A stretch of 64,000 nt of DNA from Patescibacteria group bacterium (GCA_018897195.1 JAHILH010000001.1:156565-220564), one strand, 5' to 3'. Positions 4,767 to 64,000 are shown, counted from the stretch's first letter. Notes: generated by a model from the sequence alone, not told the origin. Numbers and translations are program-made.

Positions 4767-6275
4767 ATGAAAAAATTTTGGCAACTTTTTGCCATTACCT
4801 TGGCGGTGTTGGCAATGCCGGCATTGTCGAGTGCGGAAAAAGTTATTCATGAAGTTCAAAAAGGGGAGACGGCAAGCGGTATTGCGAAGCAATACGGCGT
4901 TACCGTCGAAAGCCTTGGCATCACTGATTCTAAGGGATGGGTATATGTCGGGCAGAAATTAACCATTTTTGACACGGAAAGAAAAGTGTCTTCTGCAAAG
5001 AAAAATTTCTCGTCCGATGAACCATTTCTCTGGAAAGTTCCTGGTGGTGACAAGTTTCGCGGTAGAGACGATGTCGCTTTCGAAAAGCTTAACTTGAGTA
5101 CGGTAGAAATTATTGAGCTCGAAAAGTTAATCGAGGCGAAAAGCTTTGACGTGTTGCCGATTTGTTATGGCGACAGATTTGAGATTATGGTTTTTGCAAA
5201 CATCAAAATTCGTGAAAATGTAATTGCAAGTTGGGACAAAAACAAGTGCCAGGCCGCTAGAATGTATAAATTGTCTAGCGGTAAAGAAGTTTGGATGCCA
5301 TTCATTTGTCGTAACTGGTCTGTTCGTGTTCCGAATCAGCCTGTTCCCGTAAAAAATGATGTGCCACCAACTTTAGACAATGGCTTTCCGCCGGCTCTCG
5401 AGGGTGGTCTTCCGCCAGCACCACCATCTGCACCAGAAGTCGGCTCTAATGGTGGTTCAAATCGTAATACCATTGATATTATAATGGGTACCGGTGCATA
5501 TGAAGATGCTCACAATTCTGGACATACAGGCGGATATGTTTGGATTAAAGGACGTGGATTTGTTTGGTCGTATGACATTGATCATGATTTAGCTCTGGAT
5601 GTCGGCATTGCTGCTTTTTATGCAGCGGGTGGCGGCAATGATCGTGGATATGATTATGACTGGAATGAATTTGTTGCCGGTCCGGCTTTTCGCTTGACAG
5701 GAAATGGTTGGGATGGAAATCTTGATCTGATGTATGGGCGATTGAATAATGAGGGCGATGTAAGTCTTTATTCTTCAAGTCAGAAGGATAATGTTTTTAT
5801 CACTTCAGTGCATTACAACGATTATCATCGGCGTCAGCAAAATGAGCTCGTGTTCCCGAAGTTTGAAGCCAACGTCGAGTATCGTCACGTCTTGAAGTCA
5901 TCGATTGATGCGAATTGGGGTGGTACACCTTTGGTGGAGACTCCCAACGATAACAATGCGGCTGAATTAACATTGACGCCTTATTTGTACGATTTTCGTC
6001 TGGATAATGGTGTTACTGTTAGCCCCTTGGTTGATTTTGGCCTGGGCTATGAAAATGGTGACAAGACTTATGCTCGTATTATGCCTGGTGCAGCCGTGAG
6101 TATTAATGATACTGACGTTCTCCAGGTGCGGGCATTCGGTTATAAGGACATGCTTGAGAGTGATAAGTCGCAAATCAGTTGGTTTGCCATTACACTCGAT
6201 CTGGGCGGGGTATACAAAGTATATCGCCGCGGGCAAATCAGCTCCGTTGATCGGAGTGAACTCGATCCTCGTTAG
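4767..6275 (+). CDS. secreted LysM-domain protein with Pro-rich linker and beta-strand-rich C-terminal domain
   Basis: GAGGAGG Shine-Dalgarno. Signal peptide MKKFWQLFAITLAVLAMPALSSA. LysM motif HEVQKGETASGIAKQYGVTVESL...VGQKLTI. Pro-rich PPTLDNGFPPALEGGLPPAPPSAP. About 270 aa of alternating aromatic/Gly-rich short strands follow. Confidence 0.8.
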   Translation: MKKFWQLFAITLAVLAMPALSSAEKVIHEVQKGETASGIAKQYGVTVESLGITDSKGWVYVGQKLTIFDTERKVSSAKKNFSSDEPFLWKVPGGDKFRGRDDVAFEKLNLSTVEIIELEKLIEAKSFDVLPICYGDRFEIMVFANIKIRENVIASWDKNKCQAARMYKLSSGKEVWMPFICRNWSVRVPNQPVPVKNDVPPTLDNGFPPALEGGLPPAPPSAPEVGSNGGSNRNTIDIIMGTGAYEDAHNSGHTGGYVWIKGRGFVWSYDIDHDLALDVGIAAFYAAGGGNDRGYDYDWNEFVAGPAFRLTGNGWDGNLDLMYGRLNNEGDVSLYSSSQKDNVFITSVHYNDYHRRQQNELVFPKFEANVEYRHVLKSSIDANWGGTPLVETPNDNNAAELTLTPYLYDFRLDNGVTVSPLVDFGLGYENGDKTYARIMPGAAVSINDTDVLQVRAFGYKDMLESDKSQISWFAITLDLGGVYKVYRRGQISSVDRSELDPR

Positions 6276-17555: not shown

Positions 17556-19016
17556 ATGGAATTTAGAACACGGTTTGCGCCGTCACCAACTGGGTATTTG
17601 CATTTGGGCAGTTTAAGAACTGTTCTTTTTGGATATTTAATGGCAAAGAGTGAGGGAGGGAAATTTTTCTTAAGAATTGAAGATACTGATCAAAAGCGAT
17701 CGGTCGAGGGAGCAATCGAGGGTTTGCTGGATATTTTAAACTGGGTAGGCTTAACTTTTGACGAAGGTCCGCATCTTGGTGGCGATTATGGTCCTTATGT
17801 ACAGACTGAGCGAATGGATATTTATAAAAAATATTTAGAGGAATTATTGGCGACTGGCAAGGCTTATTACTGTTTTTGTACATCAGAAAGATTGGATGCT
17901 ATGCGCGCTGAGCAACAGGCGAATAAATTACCGCCTCGCTATGATCGACATTGTCGTAATTTGAGCAAGGAAGATGTGGAGAAAAGGATTGCAGCCGGCG
18001 AGCCGTATGTAGTACGACACAAATTACCGTTGGACGGAGAGATTACCGTTCATGATGAATTGCGTGGCGATATTACGGTGCAGTTTAAGGAGGTGGAAGA
18101 TTATGTTTTGATTAAGTCTGACGGGATTCCTACTTATCAATTTGCGAGCGTGGTTGATGACCATACGATGAAGACTTCACATGTCCTACGTGCCGAAGAG
18201 TGGATTCCTAGTTTACCAAAAAATATACAACTATATAACGATTTTGGCTGGGAGCCACCAAAATTTGTCCACATGTCTTTGACCTTAAATAAGGACGGTG
18301 GCAAATTGAGCAAGCGCCAGGGCGATGTGGCCGTGGAGGATTATCGGGCGAAGGGTTATTTACAAGAAGCTCTGATAAATTTTAGCGCGCTTTTGGGATG
18401 GCATCCCAAGGATGATCAAGAGATTTTAACCTTGGACGAAATTATTTCAAAATTCAATTACAAAGATATGGGTGTAAAGGGCGCTATCTTTGATTTGGAT
18501 AAATTGGATTACTATAATGGTTACTATATCCGCCAAAAACCGATCGCGGAATTGGTAGAATTGTGTAAGCCGTTCTTGGCTGAGAATTTAAAATTAACAA
18601 ACAATTCTTATAAAAAAACCGATGAATTTTTAACCAAGGTGGTAAAGTCTGAACAGGAGAGATTGAAAAAATTAATTGAAATAGGGGAGTTGACGGAGTT
18701 TTTGTTTAAGGATGAGATTGAATATGATACTAATCTATTAGTTTGGAAAAAAACGACCTTGGAGGAGATGAAAGTCAATTTACAAAAGATTTATGATTTT
18801 TTGGAAAGAATTTCTGAGGAAAACTGGAATCGTGAATATTTAGATGCTAATGTTATTGAATATTTAAAGACTAATGATTTGAAAATAGGTGATCATCTTT
18901 GGCCAACGCGCGTGGCTTTGTCTGGCAAGCAGGCGAGTCCGGGGCCTTTTGAGATTGCGGACGTTTTAGGTAAGGTAGAGACTTTGGAGAGAATTAAGAG
19001 GGCGATAGGGAAATAA
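17556..19016 (+). CDS. gltX: glutamate--tRNA ligase
   Basis: HIGH-type motif PSPTGYLHLGSLRT and KMSKS-type motif KLSKRQ. 486 aa. Confidence 0.95.
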   Translation: MEFRTRFAPSPTGYLHLGSLRTVLFGYLMAKSEGGKFFLRIEDTDQKRSVEGAIEGLLDILNWVGLTFDEGPHLGGDYGPYVQTERMDIYKKYLEELLATGKAYYCFCTSERLDAMRAEQQANKLPPRYDRHCRNLSKEDVEKRIAAGEPYVVRHKLPLDGEITVHDELRGDITVQFKEVEDYVLIKSDGIPTYQFASVVDDHTMKTSHVLRAEEWIPSLPKNIQLYNDFGWEPPKFVHMSLTLNKDGGKLSKRQGDVAVEDYRAKGYLQEALINFSALLGWHPKDDQEILTLDEIISKFNYKDMGVKGAIFDLDKLDYYNGYYIRQKPIAELVELCKPFLAENLKLTNNSYKKTDEFLTKVVKSEQERLKKLIEIGELTEFLFKDEIEYDTNLLVWKKTTLEEMKVNLQKIYDFLERISEENWNREYLDANVIEYLKTNDLKIGDHLWPTRVALSGKQASPGPFEIADVLGKVETLERIKRAIGK

Positions 19017-19022
19017 AAAACC

Positions 19023-19090
19023 CCTCACCCTGTCCCCTTTATTATTAATCGGACGAGGATTACGTTAACCCTCTCCCGCCGGGGCGAGGG
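19023..19090 (+). repeat. GC-rich intergenic repeat, copy A
   Basis: cctcaccctgtcccctttattattaatcggacgaggattacgttaaccctctcc (19023-19076), followed by cgccggggcgaggg. The 54-nt core recurs at 63237-63290 with 5 mismatches. Confidence 0.6.
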
Positions 19091-19101
19091 AAAAAAACTG
19101 T

Positions 19102-19131
19102 AAAAAGGCTGATTTTATTCAGCCTTTTTTA
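19102..19131 (+). terminator. terminator after gltX
   Basis: AGGCTGA (19106-19112) pairs with TCAGCCT (19119-19125), followed by T6. Confidence 0.7.
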
Positions 19132-31534: not shown

Positions 31535-31542
31535 AATGCTTG

Positions 31543-31614
31543 TGATCCCTAGGAGAATCGAACTCCTGTTATCAGGATGAGAACCTGGTGTCCTAACCAT
31601 TAGACGAAGGGACC
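31543..31614 (-). tRNA. tRNA-Glu (anticodon CUC), no encoded CCA
   Basis: The reverse complement GGTCCCTTCGTCTAATGGTTAGGACACCAGGTTCTCATCCTGATAACAGGAGTTCGATTCTCCTAGGGATCA folds as a cloverleaf. Anticodon loop is TTCTCAT. T-arm is AGGAG-TTCGATT-CTCCT. Confidence 0.9.
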
Positions 31615-31676
31615 ATTTTTTGCGAAAATAAATAGCCCTATATGGGACTGTTGGTCGTGTGATTGTTATTAAATTG

Positions 31677-31748
31677 TGATCCCTAGGGGAATCGAACCCC
31701 TATTATCAGGATGAAAACCTGGTGTCCTAACCACTAGACGAAGGGACC
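31677..31748 (-). tRNA. tRNA-Glu (anticodon UUC), no encoded CCA
   Basis: The reverse complement GGTCCCTTCGTCTAGTGGTTAGGACACCAGGTTTTCATCCTGATAATAGGGGTTCGATTCCCCTAGGGATCA folds as a cloverleaf. Anticodon loop is TTTTCAT. Confidence 0.9.
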
Positions 31749-55709: not shown

Positions 55710-57824
55710 TTATAATTCAATTGCTGCGACTGAAACTCCGCCATTAAAACTTTCCTCATAGGCATAAAAAGAGGAAACCAGCGTACCGTTGTCGTCGAAA
55801 GCTCTGACATGTGGAGCGCCACCAGGCCCAGTCCCTGTGATAATTTCTTTTTGACCATCATAATCAATATCTGCCAAGGAAATATTTACACCACCCTTGA
55901 ATTGCTCAGCATAGGCAAAAAATTGGCCATGTAGCTTGAAGTGATTGTCAAAGATTTTTATTTGCGGTCCACCACCCTTTCCTGGCGCTGTTATAATCAT
56001 TGAACGGGCATTTCGGACGCTATCATTGAATGCTCCAACCGCGACGTTTACACCGCCTCTGAATTTTTTATCATAAGCAAAGTATTGTCCTTTTAACTGT
56101 CCGTTGTTGTTAAAAATACGTACCTGTGGTCCACCGCCGACGCCAGCACCTGTTACTATTTCAGATATACCATCACCATCAAGGTCGCCAGCTGCGACAT
56201 TTACACCACCTCTGAAATTTTTGTCATAGGCAAAAAATTGCCTTTTTAATTCGCCTTTATGATTAAAAACTCTAATGTGCGGTCCGCCACCAATACCAGC
56301 GCCGACTACAATCTCCGAAAATCCATCACCATCAATATCTGAAACTACTACATTTACACCACCTTTAAACTTCTTATCAAAAGCATAAAATTCTTTTTTT
56401 AATTTACCATCACTGCTAAAGATTTTTACATGAGGACTGTTTCCAGTATTTGCGCTAACGATAATTTCAGATAAACCATCTCCGTTGACATCGCCGGTTG
56501 CGACATTGACGCCACCCTTGAAATTTTGATCAAAGGCAAAAAATTTATTTAAAATTTTTCCATCTTTGTCTGTCAATAATATCTCACCATTTTTTCCCGA
56601 TAGCGGGCCAATAACTAAATCAACATTCTTTTTTTGAGAAATATCAAGTACGTTATTAATGGCAGCGTAAACGTTTAGTCTGCCGCTCCCAAGTTTACCG
56701 ATATAGTTTGGGTTTAAATTATCAATATTATCTGTATTTTTTAGCAATGCGTTAACCACCTCACTTCTTGATAGGTGCGGATTGGCTGCCTCAATCAAAG
56801 CAACTGCTCCGGAAACCATAGGCACAGCCATTGAAGTTCCAGCCCAGTAGCCATCATAATTATTGTTAAAAACAGTTGAGCCTGGTTTATTTACAGCAGT
56901 ACTAAAAATACTAATACCTGGTGCGGAAATATCAATGCACCTACTGCCATAGCCTGAAAAATTTGCTTTTTGATCAAGTGAATCAGTTGCCGCAACACCG
57001 ATTACCATGTTTTCACCATTTTTACCATCGTAGCAAACGGGATATAGTGGCTCTTTGTCTAAAAAATGGCTACTATCACCTTCCATGTCATTGCCAGCTG
57101 CGGCCACGACCACAATACCGGCGTTATAGGCTCGCCTAATAGCGTCTTCTAGGATTGAGCTGTATCCAGCGCCAACAAAGCTTAAGTTGATAATATCAGC
57201 TCCGTTTTTAATTGCATAATCAATCGCCCTAACAACGCTCTTTGTATTTCCCTCTCCCTTGCCATTTAAAACACGCAGGGGCATAATCTTGGCATTCCAG
57301 GCAACACCAGTAATGCCTAAGAAGTTATTACCACCGGCAGCGGCAACACCTGCTACAACTGTTCCGTGCATGATGCCGTCCTTGGTATAGCCTTCGTCGT
57401 ATTTAGGATTTGGGTCTGAGTTGTTTTCAACGAAGTCCCAACCATTATAATCATCAATAAACCCATTACCATCATCATCTCTATTATTTTTGGGCACCTC
57501 GCCGGAATTAATCCAGATATTATCTTTAAGGTCTGGGTGATTAATTTGTACCCCTGAATCAATAACGGCAATAATAATACTACTAGCATCCCAATGCTCG
57601 TCCCATGTTTCCACAGCCTTAATTCTTTTTAAATACCACTGCTTATCAAAATAAGGGTCGGACGGAACAGTGCTGGCCCTATAGATGTTAACATCGTCTT
57701 TTTCGGTAAACTTAATCTCAAAATCTGCTGTTTTATTAGCTAAAACCGCAGAAGGATAAAAAAAGTTACCGGCAATGCTAGCCAGCAAAAATAAAATAAA
57801 AAAAGATGATATTTTTTTTCTCAT
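55710..57824 (-). CDS. secreted S8 subtilisin-like protease with C-terminal FG-GAP-like repeats
   Basis: Signal peptide from ATG 57824 (MRKKISSFFILFLLASIAG). Catalytic triad motifs AVIDSGV, HGTVVAG and GTSMAVP. About 5.5 repeats of roughly 50 aa follow (F.AYDKKFRGGVNVA.GD.DGDG.SEI..G.G.GGGP.V.IF). Confidence 0.88.
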   Translation of the reverse strand: MRKKISSFFILFLLASIAGNFFYPSAVLANKTADFEIKFTEKDDVNIYRASTVPSDPYFDKQWYLKRIKAVETWDEHWDASSIIIAVIDSGVQINHPDLKDNIWINSGEVPKNNRDDDGNGFIDDYNGWDFVENNSDPNPKYDEGYTKDGIMHGTVVAGVAAAGGNNFLGITGVAWNAKIMPLRVLNGKGEGNTKSVVRAIDYAIKNGADIINLSFVGAGYSSILEDAIRRAYNAGIVVVAAAGNDMEGDSSHFLDKEPLYPVCYDGKNGENMVIGVAATDSLDQKANFSGYGSRCIDISAPGISIFSTAVNKPGSTVFNNNYDGYWAGTSMAVPMVSGAVALIEAANPHLSRSEVVNALLKNTDNIDNLNPNYIGKLGSGRLNVYAAINNVLDISQKKNVDLVIGPLSGKNGEILLTDKDGKILNKFFAFDQNFKGGVNVATGDVNGDGLSEIIVSANTGNSPHVKIFSSDGKLKKEFYAFDKKFKGGVNVVVSDIDGDGFSEIVVGAGIGGGPHIRVFNHKGELKRQFFAYDKNFRGGVNVAAGDLDGDGISEIVTGAGVGGGPQVRIFNNNGQLKGQYFAYDKKFRGGVNVAVGAFNDSVRNARSMIITAPGKGGGPQIKIFDNHFKLHGQFFAYAEQFKGGVNISLADIDYDGQKEIITGTGPGGAPHVRAFDDNGTLVSSFYAYEESFNGGVSVAAIEL

Positions 57825-57878
57825 AACATCTTTATTATAACACATTAAAAAAGTATTTGGCAATGTTGTTTTTGTTAT

Positions 57879-61565: not shown

Positions 61566-63194
61566 TTATGAGAACAATATTTTATTTACCAAATTATTGC
61601 TTTCTAACCACTCCAAGATATCCACAATCTGTCCATCTAATTTTTTTTGATTAAAATTCTTTGGTAATTTCTTGGCTAAAAATGCGTGTTTGCGTTTTTT
61701 GCGCAACTCTTTCGTTGTAGGAATTGGCTGACCACCTCCACCAAGGCAACCGTCGGGGCATGACATAATTTCCAAATAGCTGTATTTTTCCAAGTGATTA
61801 ATGATTTTATTAACCTCACCAATCCCCTTCAGCGATGCCAATTCTTTACCACTTTCATTTTGCAACAACAAAACTTCATCTAGATTGTGGATGTTTTGTT
61901 TGCCATCGACCTTGGTAATTTGATTAGCCAATTTTAAGCGCCCTAATATTGATGCAAAAACACTAGTGGAAAATAAATCTGCTAATTCATTATTTAGTGA
62001 ATCGATATTTTTTATTTTGCTTTTAGTTAAATCAAGTTTATGTTTTTTTAATAAAAAAGAGAGTTCACGCAGAGTTAGAACATAATCAACTGGCCACAAG
62101 CCATTGAACTGCATTTTCTTTTCCACAATTTCATTTTTTCTTGCCACGCAAACACCGATACTTATTACTGAAATTTTTTCCGGGTCCAGCTTTTGCTTGT
62201 CCGCCCAATAAGTTTTTATTAAACCCCCCATAACCATAGCCGGTGATTTAATTTTTTGTAAATTTTTTGCCAAGGCTGGTTGGTATTGTTTGATGTAATT
62301 AACTGTAGCTGGACAATGAGAGCCGATCATTACTTCCCCGCCGTTGTTTTCTAAAATGTGTTCAGATTGAAGGTGTGCATTAATCTCGACACCAAGTGCG
62401 GAATTAAAAACATAATTAACACCCATTTGTTTTAGAGCGGCTGCCACTGAATTTAATTCTATATTTTTCATGTCAAAATTCTCACCAATGCTAAGCTCCA
62501 TTATTGGATCTAGAATTACCACCACAGTTTTTTGTTTATCTTTTATTTCCCGTTCCAGGTCCTCGTAATTAGTTTGCTCTTGAATGGCACTAACTGGGCA
62601 ATGAAGCGCGCATTGACCGCAAAGAATACAGGGATTTTTTTTGCTATCTTTAAAATCAACTTCTTGACCATGGCCTTTGCCACGCATCACTAAGCAGTCA
62701 AGTTTTTGTAAGTCCTGACAAGCGGAAATGCAATTACGGCAATCAATACATTGTGTGCCATCAATCTCTAGCGCATTTTTAAGTTTATGAATTTGGCGAT
62801 TCTTTTTGCGATCAGTAAAACGAACGATTTTAGTTTGGTATTTTTGAGCAAACTCTAATAGCTTGCATTCAAAACGCCAGACGCAAGTCGCGCATTTTTC
62901 CACGTGCTCAGCGTAAATCAATTCAATATTTACATTGCGGACTTTTTTAATTTTATCAGATTCGGTCATGATTTCCATACCCGCACTTGCCTTAGTGGAA
63001 CAAGAGGTTACCAGTTTATTGTTACCTTTCACTTCTACGACACAAACACGACAATTGCCCTTGGCACAAAAATCCTTGTGGTGGCAAAGGGTTGGTATTT
63101 CAATTCCATTTCGTTCAGCCACTTCCAAAATAGTCTCGCCCTCCGTGCCAGTCATTTTTTGATTGTTGATTTTAAGTTTAATTTTATTTATCAT
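61566..63194 (-). CDS. [FeFe]-hydrogenase-like protein (2Fe-2S + 4Fe-4S ferredoxin domains + divergent H-cluster domain)
   Basis: N-terminal 2Fe-2S fold (CHHKDFCAKGNCRVCVVEV). CIDCRNCISAC and CILCGQCALHCP. H-domain motifs GSHCPAT, IGVCVARKNE and EIMSCPDGCLGGGGQPIP. Confidence 0.85.
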   Translation of the reverse strand: MINKIKLKINNQKMTGTEGETILEVAERNGIEIPTLCHHKDFCAKGNCRVCVVEVKGNNKLVTSCSTKASAGMEIMTESDKIKKVRNVNIELIYAEHVEKCATCVWRFECKLLEFAQKYQTKIVRFTDRKKNRQIHKLKNALEIDGTQCIDCRNCISACQDLQKLDCLVMRGKGHGQEVDFKDSKKNPCILCGQCALHCPVSAIQEQTNYEDLEREIKDKQKTVVVILDPIMELSIGENFDMKNIELNSVAAALKQMGVNYVFNSALGVEINAHLQSEHILENNGGEVMIGSHCPATVNYIKQYQPALAKNLQKIKSPAMVMGGLIKTYWADKQKLDPEKISVISIGVCVARKNEIVEKKMQFNGLWPVDYVLTLRELSFLLKKHKLDLTKSKIKNIDSLNNELADLFSTSVFASILGRLKLANQITKVDGKQNIHNLDEVLLLQNESGKELASLKGIGEVNKIINHLEKYSYLEIMSCPDGCLGGGGQPIPTTKELRKKRKHAFLAKKLPKNFNQKKLDGQIVDILEWLESNNLVNKILFS

Positions 63195-63236
63195 ATAAAA
63201 ATTATATACACTAATTAATCTTCTTCGCCCGTTCTA

Positions 63237-63306
63237 CCTCACCCCGCCCTCTTTATAATTAGTCGGACGAGGATTACGTTAACCCTCTCCTGCAAAGGAG
63301 AGGGAT
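63237..63306 (+). repeat. GC-rich intergenic repeat, copy B
   Basis: cctcaccccgccctctttataattagtcggacgaggattacgttaaccctctcc (63237-63290) matches copy A at 49 of 54 positions. The hairpin CCCTCTCC-tgcaaa-GGAGAGGG ends at 63304. Confidence 0.6.
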
Positions 63307-63370
63307 CTATTACCCAACGCCGATTATAAATAAAAAAATTGTTTTTTAAAGGAAGTAATATCTACTAGTT

Positions 63371-63404
63371 CCCTCGCCCCGCCGGGAGAGGGTTAGGGTG
63401 AGGG
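63371..63404 (-). repeat. inverted short form of the GC-rich repeat (copy C)
   Basis: ccctcgccccgccgggagagggttagggtgaggg. Its reverse complement resembles copy A with the internal segment of about 35 nt removed. Confidence 0.5.
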
Positions 63405-63408
63405 AACA

Positions 63409-64000
63409 TTAAATATATTTCTCCTCACTATAATATGGATAAACAATCGACACCATGGCTCCAACCAAGAAATACCAAATAAAATCTTCGATTGGAATCC
63501 CAATAAATAATATCCCTGACAACTTCTCCAACATCCAGGTGTGTTCAACCCAACCAGGAGAAACGAATATCATCAACAAATAAATCGGCAACGAGATCAA
63601 TATCATCATTACCCCGCTCATTAAAGATATTTTAATCAAATCCGTACGTTTTATTAAAATGTAAATAATGGCTGTCAAAATTCCAATCGAATTAGCGTAA
63701 AAAGAATTCCAATCAAACATTTTGAATAAAACCAATGTGATAATTCCTGTAGAAATTAGTGGAATTGCAATGCGCGCCCAACTTGCCTGTCCTCTGCTTT
63801 TAATTTTTAAAAATAATAAATACCAAATCGCTGCAATACCAGCATTACTAAAACCTAATAAAAAATCTTCAACACCGACACGATAGCCGAAGATAGTTTC
63901 CGGTCGCCACCAGTCGGCAGTATAGACCAGCCCGAAAGTAACTCCCAAAATGGCATACAATAAACTAATCAATAACAATCTTTGACGATATTCTTTTAAT
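63409..64000 (-). CDS. membrane protein with two lycopene-cyclase-domain-like motifs (probably 5'-truncated by the window edge)
   Basis: Polytopic. GVEDFLLGF and IPIEDFIWYF resemble the PxE(E/D) motifs of CrtYc/Yd-type lycopene cyclase domains. The frame stays open upstream of the TTG at 63978 to the window end. Confidence 0.5.
   Translation of the reverse strand, partial: LKEYRQRLLLISLLYAILGVTFGLVYTADWWRPETIFGYRVGVEDFLLGFSNAGIAAIWYLLFLKIKSRGQASWARIAIPLISTGIITLVLFKMFDWNSFYANSIGILTAIIYILIKRTDLIKISLMSGVMMILISLPIYLLMIFVSPGWVEHTWMLEKLSGILFIGIPIEDFIWYFLVGAMVSIVYPYYSEEKYI

Follow-up and report, generated by a model that had tools for sequence, protein, structure and literature searches.

Copies of a BoxC-type structured repeat, probably mobile and in part extended by a 35-nt module, in a Patescibacteria genome

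What kind of element is a GC-rich, non-coding sequence that recurs almost unchanged at two intergenic loci of an AT-rich Patescibacteria genome? The question is raised by a 64,000-nt stretch of such a genome (the window), for which a preliminary description had aligned positions 19023-19076 (copy A) with 63237-63290 (copy B) without gaps and with 5 mismatches in 54 nt, and had proposed a dispersed REP/MITE-like repeat, a protein-binding site or a small RNA module. The alignment was reproduced exactly, as was the shared 28-nt run TCGGACGAGGATTACGTTAACCCTCTCC, present at two places in the window (19049-19076 and 63263-63290); allowing up to 3 mismatches recovered the same two places only, with none expected in 100 shuffles. 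A repeat finder gave a longer match of 69 nt, 86% identical (19023-19091 and 63237-63305), which ends at the limits of the element, the flanks of A and B being unrelated. As the likeness stops at the element ends and the flanks do not align, the pair is not a segmental duplication. Our open-reading frame (ORF) calls agree that both copies are intergenic, A following gltX and B lying upstream of a hydrogenase-like gene: copy A starts 5 nt past the gltX stop codon (ORF 17556..19016; glutamyl-tRNA synthetase by Pfam), and copy B ends 43 nt before the start of an [FeFe]-hydrogenase-like ORF (61566..63194, minus strand). Both are richer in GC than their AT-rich surroundings, as described (57% in A and 52% in B, flanks 26-41%), and the terminal hairpin noted for each, CCCTCTCC...GGnGAGGG, was found three times in the window with none expected, at the ends of A, B and a further copy, C.

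Copies A and B share one layout, CCCTCACCC, CCCTCTCC(C) and GGnGAGGG, with a 35-nt module in loop 2. Copy A is a long form (19021..19092, C-rich strand on the plus strand) situated between the gltX stop codon (19014-19016) and a terminator, and consists, on the plus strand, of block 1 CCCCTCACCC (19021-19030), the 35-nt module TGTCCCCTTTATTATTAATCGGACGAGGATTACGT (19031-19065), which is missing from short forms, a loop remnant TAA (19066-19068), block 2 CCCTCTCCC (19069-19077), loop 1 (19078-19080) and block 3 GGGGCGAGGG (19081-19090). Copy B is a long form on a type B backbone (63237..63305, C-rich strand also on the plus strand, antisense to both adjoining genes), and comprises, again on the plus strand, the block CCTCACCCCG (63237-63246), its 35-nt module (63247..63281, limits taken from the module-less orthologue in contig L214 and good to +/- 1-2 nt), the loop nucleotide A (63282), the block CCCTCTCC (63283-63290), the loop TGCAAA (63291-63296) and the block GGAGAGGG (63297-63304). 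The earlier statement that the element is not just a terminator stands, in that no T-run follows the element hairpins and a gltX-terminator-like hairpin, separate from the repeat, was found on the plus strand at 19102-19129 with a T-run to 19137. An intrinsic terminator was rejected as an identity for the repeat itself: a terminator scan returned 19102-19129 only and nothing in 63100-63500, and downstream of the element hairpins the sequence is an A-run or mixed.

The third family member, copy C, was missed in the preliminary description. It is a short form (63369..63406, minus strand), inverted with respect to copy B and separated from it by a 63-nt AT-rich spacer (63306..63368); it starts 2 nt past the stop codon (63409-63411) of a 189-aa ORF with a Lycopene_cyc domain and is oriented like that gene. 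On the plus strand it reads CCCTCGCCCC (63371-63380), GCC, GGGAGAGGG (63384-63392), TTA and GGGTGAGGG (63396-63404), whilst its minus-strand reading, TTCCCTCACCC-TAA-CCCTCTCCC-GGC-GGGGCGAGGG-AAC, is that of copy A minus 35 internal bases. Copy C identifies the family. By blastn it matched all 5,426 of 5,426 complete E. coli genomes, at a median of 18 places per genome and with 91% identity over 43 nt, always where no feature is annotated, for example in the yggN-yggL spacer (L205), and its three blocks and loop 2 are exactly the 'type A mm' of the E. coli BoxC/TM_ECO repeat (PMC4666352, Table 1).

This repeat has been named BoxC, then PIT element and then TM_ECO (Bachellier et al. 1990s; Hoyne & Maher 2000, 2002, as cited in PMC4666352). 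E. coli K-12 contains 23 TM_ECO copies (Holder et al. 2015, PMC4666352), defined in ITxF with loops of 1-6 nt and divided into type A, in which loop 2 is TTA, and type B, in which it is CCG or TCG; every copy lies between genes, neither strand is favoured, there are five inverted A+B pairs, mobility genes are not associated with the copies, and the surroundings of TM loci are unusually variable among E. coli strains (PMC4666352). The isolated TM_ECO strand forms a triplex in vitro, a triplex in vivo was not detected, and PIT elements stall DNA polymerase in vitro and have neither promoter nor terminator activity (PMC4666352). The same sequence, under the name HPGQ motif, was described as a G-quadruplex/hairpin switch in vitro (Kaplan et al. 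2016, PMC5100583).

The agreement between the E. coli repeat and the copies studied here is close. Three blocks on one strand (CCCTC[G/T]CCC, GGGAGAGGG, GGGTGAGGG) are carried by A, B and C, by four metagenome copies (L001-L004) and by the copies in the relatives L208 and L214, and the blocks CCCTCGCCCC, GGGAGAGGG and GGGTGAGGG are identical to those of BoxC/PIT/TM. Both subtypes occur, type A (TTA) and type B (TCG or CCG), the copies are strictly intergenic in either orientation (in the window, three in 64 kb, all between genes), inverted type A plus type B pairs occur, presence varies strongly among close relatives, and no associated transposase is known. The differences concern the host, here a Patescibacteria genome of 38% GC, the geometry of the pairs and the length of loop 2. 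In the window the pair is made of C (type A) and B (type B backbone), with the third blocks directed outward across the 63-nt spacer, whereas in the E. coli pairs (L205 and those of Table 1) they are directed inward across 16-30 nt; the L214 orthologue of the window pair is a plain A+B pair. Loop 2 is TTA in copy C and is likewise short in the short copies of relatives, but in A and B it measures 38 nt (the 35-nt module plus 3 nt) as against 3 nt, outside the 1-6 nt of ITxF. Because A and B agree with the BoxC family in blocks, location, copy number and variability and depart from it in the length of the loop, they are filed as a variant of it: A and B belong, as judged from their sequence, to the BoxC/PIT/TM family as long forms, and the short copy C is a plain member. 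What is new is the 35-nt middle, the hairpin end and the 5' CCTCACCC being the long-known BoxC/PIT/TM triplex motif. Of the identical 28-nt core, 17 nt belong to the module and the other 11 nt to loop 2 and block 2.

The module has a constant length of 35 nt, and its six copies agree at 29-33 of 35 positions, with the variation concentrated in one AT-rich stretch (30/35 nt match between B and A). On the G-rich strand it extends loop 2 from 3 nt to 38 nt, and its segment GAGGATTA repeats the neighbouring TAACCCTC imperfectly and in inverted orientation. In single-strand folds, computed with tools that consider Watson-Crick and wobble pairs only, block 2 and the module form an inner hairpin, which in copy A is nested in the stem of the C-block and the third block; on the long-form G-strand a possible inner hairpin is predicted as GAGGGTTA-ACG-TAATCCTC. 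RNA folds of the elements were more stable than those of shuffled sequences (z -1.9 to -5.3). No covariation was found among the six long-form sequences, and two pairings internal to the module, TAATC/GATTA and GTCC/GGAC, are not kept in the six copies and were thus rejected as conserved structure. The G-strand of copy C is a canonical G3N3G3N3G3N3G3, matching (G3+ N1-7)x4 as GGGAGAGGGTTAGGGTGAGGG, whilst A and B do not match this pattern, the module placing 31 nt (A) or 30 nt (B) between G-tracts 2 and 3.

Outside the window, an exact 21-mer of the module returned no match in 185,579 GTDB species-representative genomes or in IMG/VR viral contigs, a degenerate pattern of its 5' half returned none in IMG/VR, and a blastn search with the module and blocks gave no match in plasmids, phages and E. 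coli genomes. The 21-mer was found in four metagenome contigs (L001-L004), all from metagenome Ga0172371. Each contains a full long form, 84-94% identical to A or B, an identity partly due to ascertainment by a 21-mer lying inside the element, and the four occupy unrelated intergenic contexts with flanks without homology to the window; L004 has in addition a short form ~400 nt from the long one. The existence of further copies whose flanks do not align refutes the possibility, raised in the preliminary description, that only two copies exist within a larger duplication. Relative to the neighbouring genes the sense strand is C-rich for A, C and L004 and G-rich for B, L001 and L003. In L002, a BoxC-like hairpin GCCCTCGCACAGAGGACGAGGGAG (4787-4810) is located 18 nt downstream of the long form, and its loop and the module both contain GGACGAGG. 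A second repeat family, palindromic and ~170 nt long, is present in three of the four long-form contigs (L001 4168-4340, 5392-5547 and 9211-9319; L003 3228-3393 and 4277-4429; L004 5206-5375 and 7993-8148) and absent from the window.

The contig L001 probably derives, to judge by its PheT sequence, from a lineage other than the close clade of the window, its PheT relatives standing at 86%, 80% and then <=60% identity among the matches listed; a near-identical long form is thus probably common to different lineages. For the window GltX, the best matches among GTDB species representatives are 56-63% identical, three of the top ten being titled 'Patescibacteria group bacterium', and an exact look-up of the protein gave no record. 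Identical proteins listed at NCBI bear the names 'Patescibacteria group bacterium' and 'Candidatus Parcubacteria bacterium', and the genome is of Parcubacteria type. A search of ~1.3 Mb around gltX in 80 genomes, several of them titled Patescibacteria or its candidate phyla, with a long-form profile (nhmmer) and a hairpin regular expression found no family member, and the element is therefore patchy within the phylum. Many of the metagenome-assembled genome records with the closest GltX (L125-L142) are titled 'uncultured Gammaproteobacteria' whilst others in the same range are titled Patescibacteria, so that these labels look unreliable.

Extended three-block forms are widespread in another setting. 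At least 120 IMG/VR contigs (L005-L124), of high GC, carry the blocks with a 20-45-nt insert in loop 2, in the layout CCCTCACCC, insert, CCCTCTCCC, loop and GGGnGAGGG / GGGAGAGGG (examples are L067 2069-10449, L090, L069, L084 and L102). Among the IMG/VR matches listed there are at least 142 distinct inserts, most of which form hairpins (mean minimum free energy -11.9 kcal/mol vs. -5.9 kcal/mol for shuffled sequences), and one subclass, TG-stem-CTGAAC-stem-CTGT, has covarying stems around a fixed CTGAAC loop. The window long forms resemble these in having the same blocks and an insert at the same place, and the loop and 3' arm of the subclass, CTGAACGAGGATT, resemble CGGACGAGGATT of the module; this likeness to the 3' half of the module may reflect homology or chance. 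They differ in the nature of the insert: in IMG/VR it is a hairpin, GC-rich or covarying, with many different sequences, whereas the module is AT-rich in its 5' half and lacks that hairpin. A literature search by sequence string found no paper on the extended forms, and no Rfam family was found for them; they are common and, as far as the literature search shows, undescribed.

Whether the elements are fixed features of their loci or insertions was addressed at five orthologous sites, in relatives with 71-92% protein identity. Site 1 runs from the gltX stop codon through the terminator to an M23 peptidase gene, and four states were observed: no element in L209 (GltX 84% identical), a short form CCCCTCACCCC-AG-CCCTATCCC-GCG-GGGCGAGGG in L208 (92%), a short form like that of L208 whose block 2 is interrupted by a different insert of 22-24 nt in L206 and L207 (90%), and the long copy A in the window. 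All four states (4/4) keep the terminator, whether or not the element is there. The block 2 insert, ATTCGACTAAGCTCACGACAGG (L206 11384-11441, the same in L207), differs from the module, so BoxC-type elements accept more than one kind of internal insertion. Two contigs of the window organism (L210 and L211) end in gltX, ~230 nt before copy A and not at the repeat.

Site 2 is the junction of the Lycopene_cyc-domain gene with the hydrogenase-like gene. The two genes overlap by 11-17 nt in L212 and L213 (hydrogenase 83% identical; L212 10001-10011) and in L216 (71%; 1373-1389), and in the window these overlapping genes are split by 214 nt (63195..63408), the intergenic segment that holds the short type A copy C and the long copy B, a state also found in the independent assembly L217 (hydrogenase 100%). 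In L214 (83%) the segment is 180 nt and contains two short elements, one of type A and one of type B (…GGAGAGGG-TCG-GGGTGAGG), whilst L215 (81%, from metagenome Ga0172371) has an unrelated 112-nt spacer (5615-5726) with a small hairpin of its own, CCACTGTATGTGG. Insertion seems to recur at this junction. In two further assemblies of the window organism the contig begins inside copy B (L218 1-60 and L219 1-60), and the repeat seems to break short-read assemblies there.

The remaining sites also differ between relatives. Between SerRS and AspRS (site 3), L208 has a ~105-nt insertion that includes a short type B element, where the window and L206 have a 17-nt spacer. Downstream of a glycosyltransferase (GT2) gene (site 4), L214 carries an element 14 nt past the stop codon, and the window a 10-nt spacer. 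At site 5 a long form lies between stop codon and terminator in L001 and is absent in L220 and L221 (PheT 86%) and in L222 (80%). Close relatives thus either have or lack short elements, and at site 5 one whole long element, as clean units; an exception is the site 3 element of L208, which sits inside the larger insertion. No target duplication was evident at the best-resolved junction (L001 vs. L220); the other junctions are AT-rich and diverged, such that short duplications or precise deletions could lie hidden in them. These further copies in unrelated contexts, together with the variable presence at orthologous sites, bear out the original suggestion of a dispersed REP/MITE-like repeat in its general sense.

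The history of the module can be read from copy B. Its orthologue in L214 has the same type B backbone, with 2 differing positions, and in copy B the module follows the first base of the TCG loop; elsewhere the module occurs in type A backbones (A and L001-L004). Since the module-less orthologue of B has the same type B backbone and the module is otherwise found in type A, the module appears to have moved between elements, or, less parsimoniously, to have been lost precisely twice. The direction from short to long is likewise the one suggested by parsimony, the alternative again being two precise losses of the module.

We consider it likely that A and B are long forms of the BoxC/PIT/TM repeat, that they are non-autonomous insertions gained and lost between relatives, and that the module has spread between elements; the whole is probably a polymorphic, non-autonomous and mobile structured repeat. 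The structure would supply the means. Three 9-nt blocks, one C-rich and two G-rich or the complement, can pair in alternative single-strand hairpins, and the long form is a short form with the module in loop 2, its three blocks intact and an inner hairpin with block 2 added. Elements and module would spread at the DNA level through such single-strand structures: polymerase may stall at a hairpin or triplex, for which PIT elements offer an in vitro precedent (PMC4666352), and copy-choice or short-tract conversion between resident elements, primed on 8-9-nt microhomologies of the G-blocks, could then transfer the module. Whole elements would be inserted by some activity that leaves no target-site duplication. 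Insertions would survive mainly just past stop codons, where they are presumably least harmful, and in this clade the elements are mostly <= ~25 nt downstream of stop codons, in either orientation. The effects on neighbouring genes (a 3' UTR hairpin, a split operon, a new promoter) would be by-products of insertion. Lack of visible duplication and hairpin ends would fit an HUH-type single-strand transposition; no mobilising enzyme was found among 10 window ORFs (Pfam) or in the Pfam tables of the syntenic loci, ~150 kb of the clade in all, and the syntenic-locus gene tables (~90 kb) show only a XerC/D-like integrase. That the module is itself a nested passenger, a unit that spreads by entering loop 2 of BoxC elements already in place, whether type A or type B, is a further possibility, on balance unlikely.

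Other classes of small mobile repeat offer partial parallels. REP sequences have a conserved 5' GT(A/G)G next to the palindrome and typically flank a RAYT gene of the genome. Like REP/BIME elements and REPINs, which are mobilised by RAYT (IS200/IS605-like Y1 HUH) transposases, the elements here are short GC-rich imperfect palindromes, extragenic, often at the 3' ends of genes, often in inverted doublets and apparently inserted without target duplication. They differ in their three-block rather than two-arm architecture and in the absence of GT[AG]G, the flanks reading ...AAAAAA|CCCC, ...TTCTA|CC and ...TGTT|CCC. No RAYT gene was found among the 10 window ORFs (Pfam) or in ~90 kb of syntenic loci (Pfam tables), and with neither the tetranucleotide nor a RAYT in window or syntenic loci a REP/RAYT identity was rejected. 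With MITEs (Correia, RUP, ERIC, Nezha) they share small size, lack of coding capacity, dispersal, terminal inverted repeats (trivially, block 1 against block 3), insertion polymorphism among relatives and the capacity to create promoters or split operons. Unlike MITEs, they are much smaller (37-77 nt), have no detectable target-site duplication and have no known parent IS with matching ends; a classical MITE was rejected on the lack of duplication at the L001-L220 junction.

Three functional readings compete with mobility. E. coli and this clade have the blocks, the type A/B split and the A+B pairing in common (PMC4666352), and such near-identity across phyla could reflect selected function rather than mobility, for instance a structure-forming or protein-binding DNA site (triplex, G-quadruplex or hairpin switch) that organises replication, recombination or the nucleoid. 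The canonical G-strand of copy C and the triplex formation (PMC4666352) and G4-hairpin switching (PMC5100583) recorded in vitro are consistent with this, yet the element is dispensable at every orthologous site examined and absent from the ~1.3 Mb around gltX in the 80 other genomes, a 38-nt loop 2 and an insert breaking block 2 (L206) are both tolerated, and no triplex was detected in E. coli in vivo (PMC4666352); we regard a selected DNA site as quite improbable. The positions of many copies recall instead a cis-acting RNA, in which hairpins of the mRNA would tune expression, either by shielding 3' ends or by changing partners within a 5' leader. Copies A, C, L001, L003 and the GT2-site copy of L214 begin 2-14 nt from a stop codon, A and L001 lie upstream of a terminator, the folds are steadier than shuffles, one G block can pair alternatively with several C blocks, and copy B would lie in the hydrogenase 5' leader if the promoter-like site in the B-C spacer (TTTAAA-16-TATAAT, 63350-63323, minus strand, located by consensus match only) were used. 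The strand represented in the mRNA is nevertheless C-rich for some copies and G-rich for others, as listed above, the element is missing at the same genes in relatives with 80-92% protein identity, no Rfam family corresponds to it, E. coli PIT elements have no promoter or terminator activity (PMC4666352), covariation is lacking, and no proposed pairing survives in the AT-rich part of the module, to which the variation is confined; together these points make a cis-acting RNA unlikely.

The third reading, two copies of a small RNA gene or of a piece of such a gene, corresponds to the small RNA module of the preliminary description and is not upheld. A conserved, structured GC outlier with a promoter-like match near B would invite it, but Rfam returned only two tRNAs in the whole window at the gathering score, sub-threshold matches at chance level in permissive scans of both loci (E<=10) and nothing relevant on twelve related loci; no Rfam or terminator-class match, for which a check had been suggested, was found. 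Copy A is, moreover, squeezed between the gltX stop codon and the gltX terminator, the copies face either way relative to transcription, close relatives lack the element at orthologous sites, the positions of the copies are not conserved among relatives and the greater part of the conserved sequence is the BoxC repeat itself, making such a gene very unlikely. That only two long copies occur in the window might further be taken to suggest chance similarity, segmental duplication or an assembly artefact; with no matches expected by chance, flanks that fail to align, the B/C region recovered in the independent assembly L217 and further copies in other samples, this can be practically dismissed. 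Taken together, mixed orientation, dispensability, the fact that large inserts are tolerated and the negative outcome of functional tests in E. coli weaken the three functional readings, relative to a mobile, non-autonomous BoxC-type repeat.

Knowledge of the BoxC/PIT/TM repeats dates from the 1990s; they are almost the same in distant bacteria and destabilise their surroundings. The motif, with both subtypes and the A+B pairing, is now found in an AT-rich, reduced Patescibacteria genome, where the empty, short and long states of orthologous sites represent gain and loss between relatives, including the splitting of overlapping operon genes. A module common to two backbones and apparently to different lineages points to exchange between elements, and motif searches with loops of 1-6 nt miss a large class of extended forms. 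Were the module a nested passenger, streamlined Patescibacteria genomes, which combine low copy numbers with clean series of empty, short and long states at orthologous sites, could make both the movement of BoxC and the conservation of its blocks tractable, and the mobilising activity, possibly of the HUH single-strand type, could become identifiable.

Two other kinds of repetition were observed in the window. Between 55843 and 56545, five tandem 153-nt units, 61-80% identical, lie within a 717-aa ORF (55710..57863, minus strand) whose syntenic homologues have Peptidase_S8 and FG-GAP matches; these units are probably protein-domain repeats. Two adjacent tRNA-Glu genes with anticodons CTC and TTC (31542-31614 and 31676-31748, minus strand) share an 89-nt stretch of gene and flank that is 90% identical between them.
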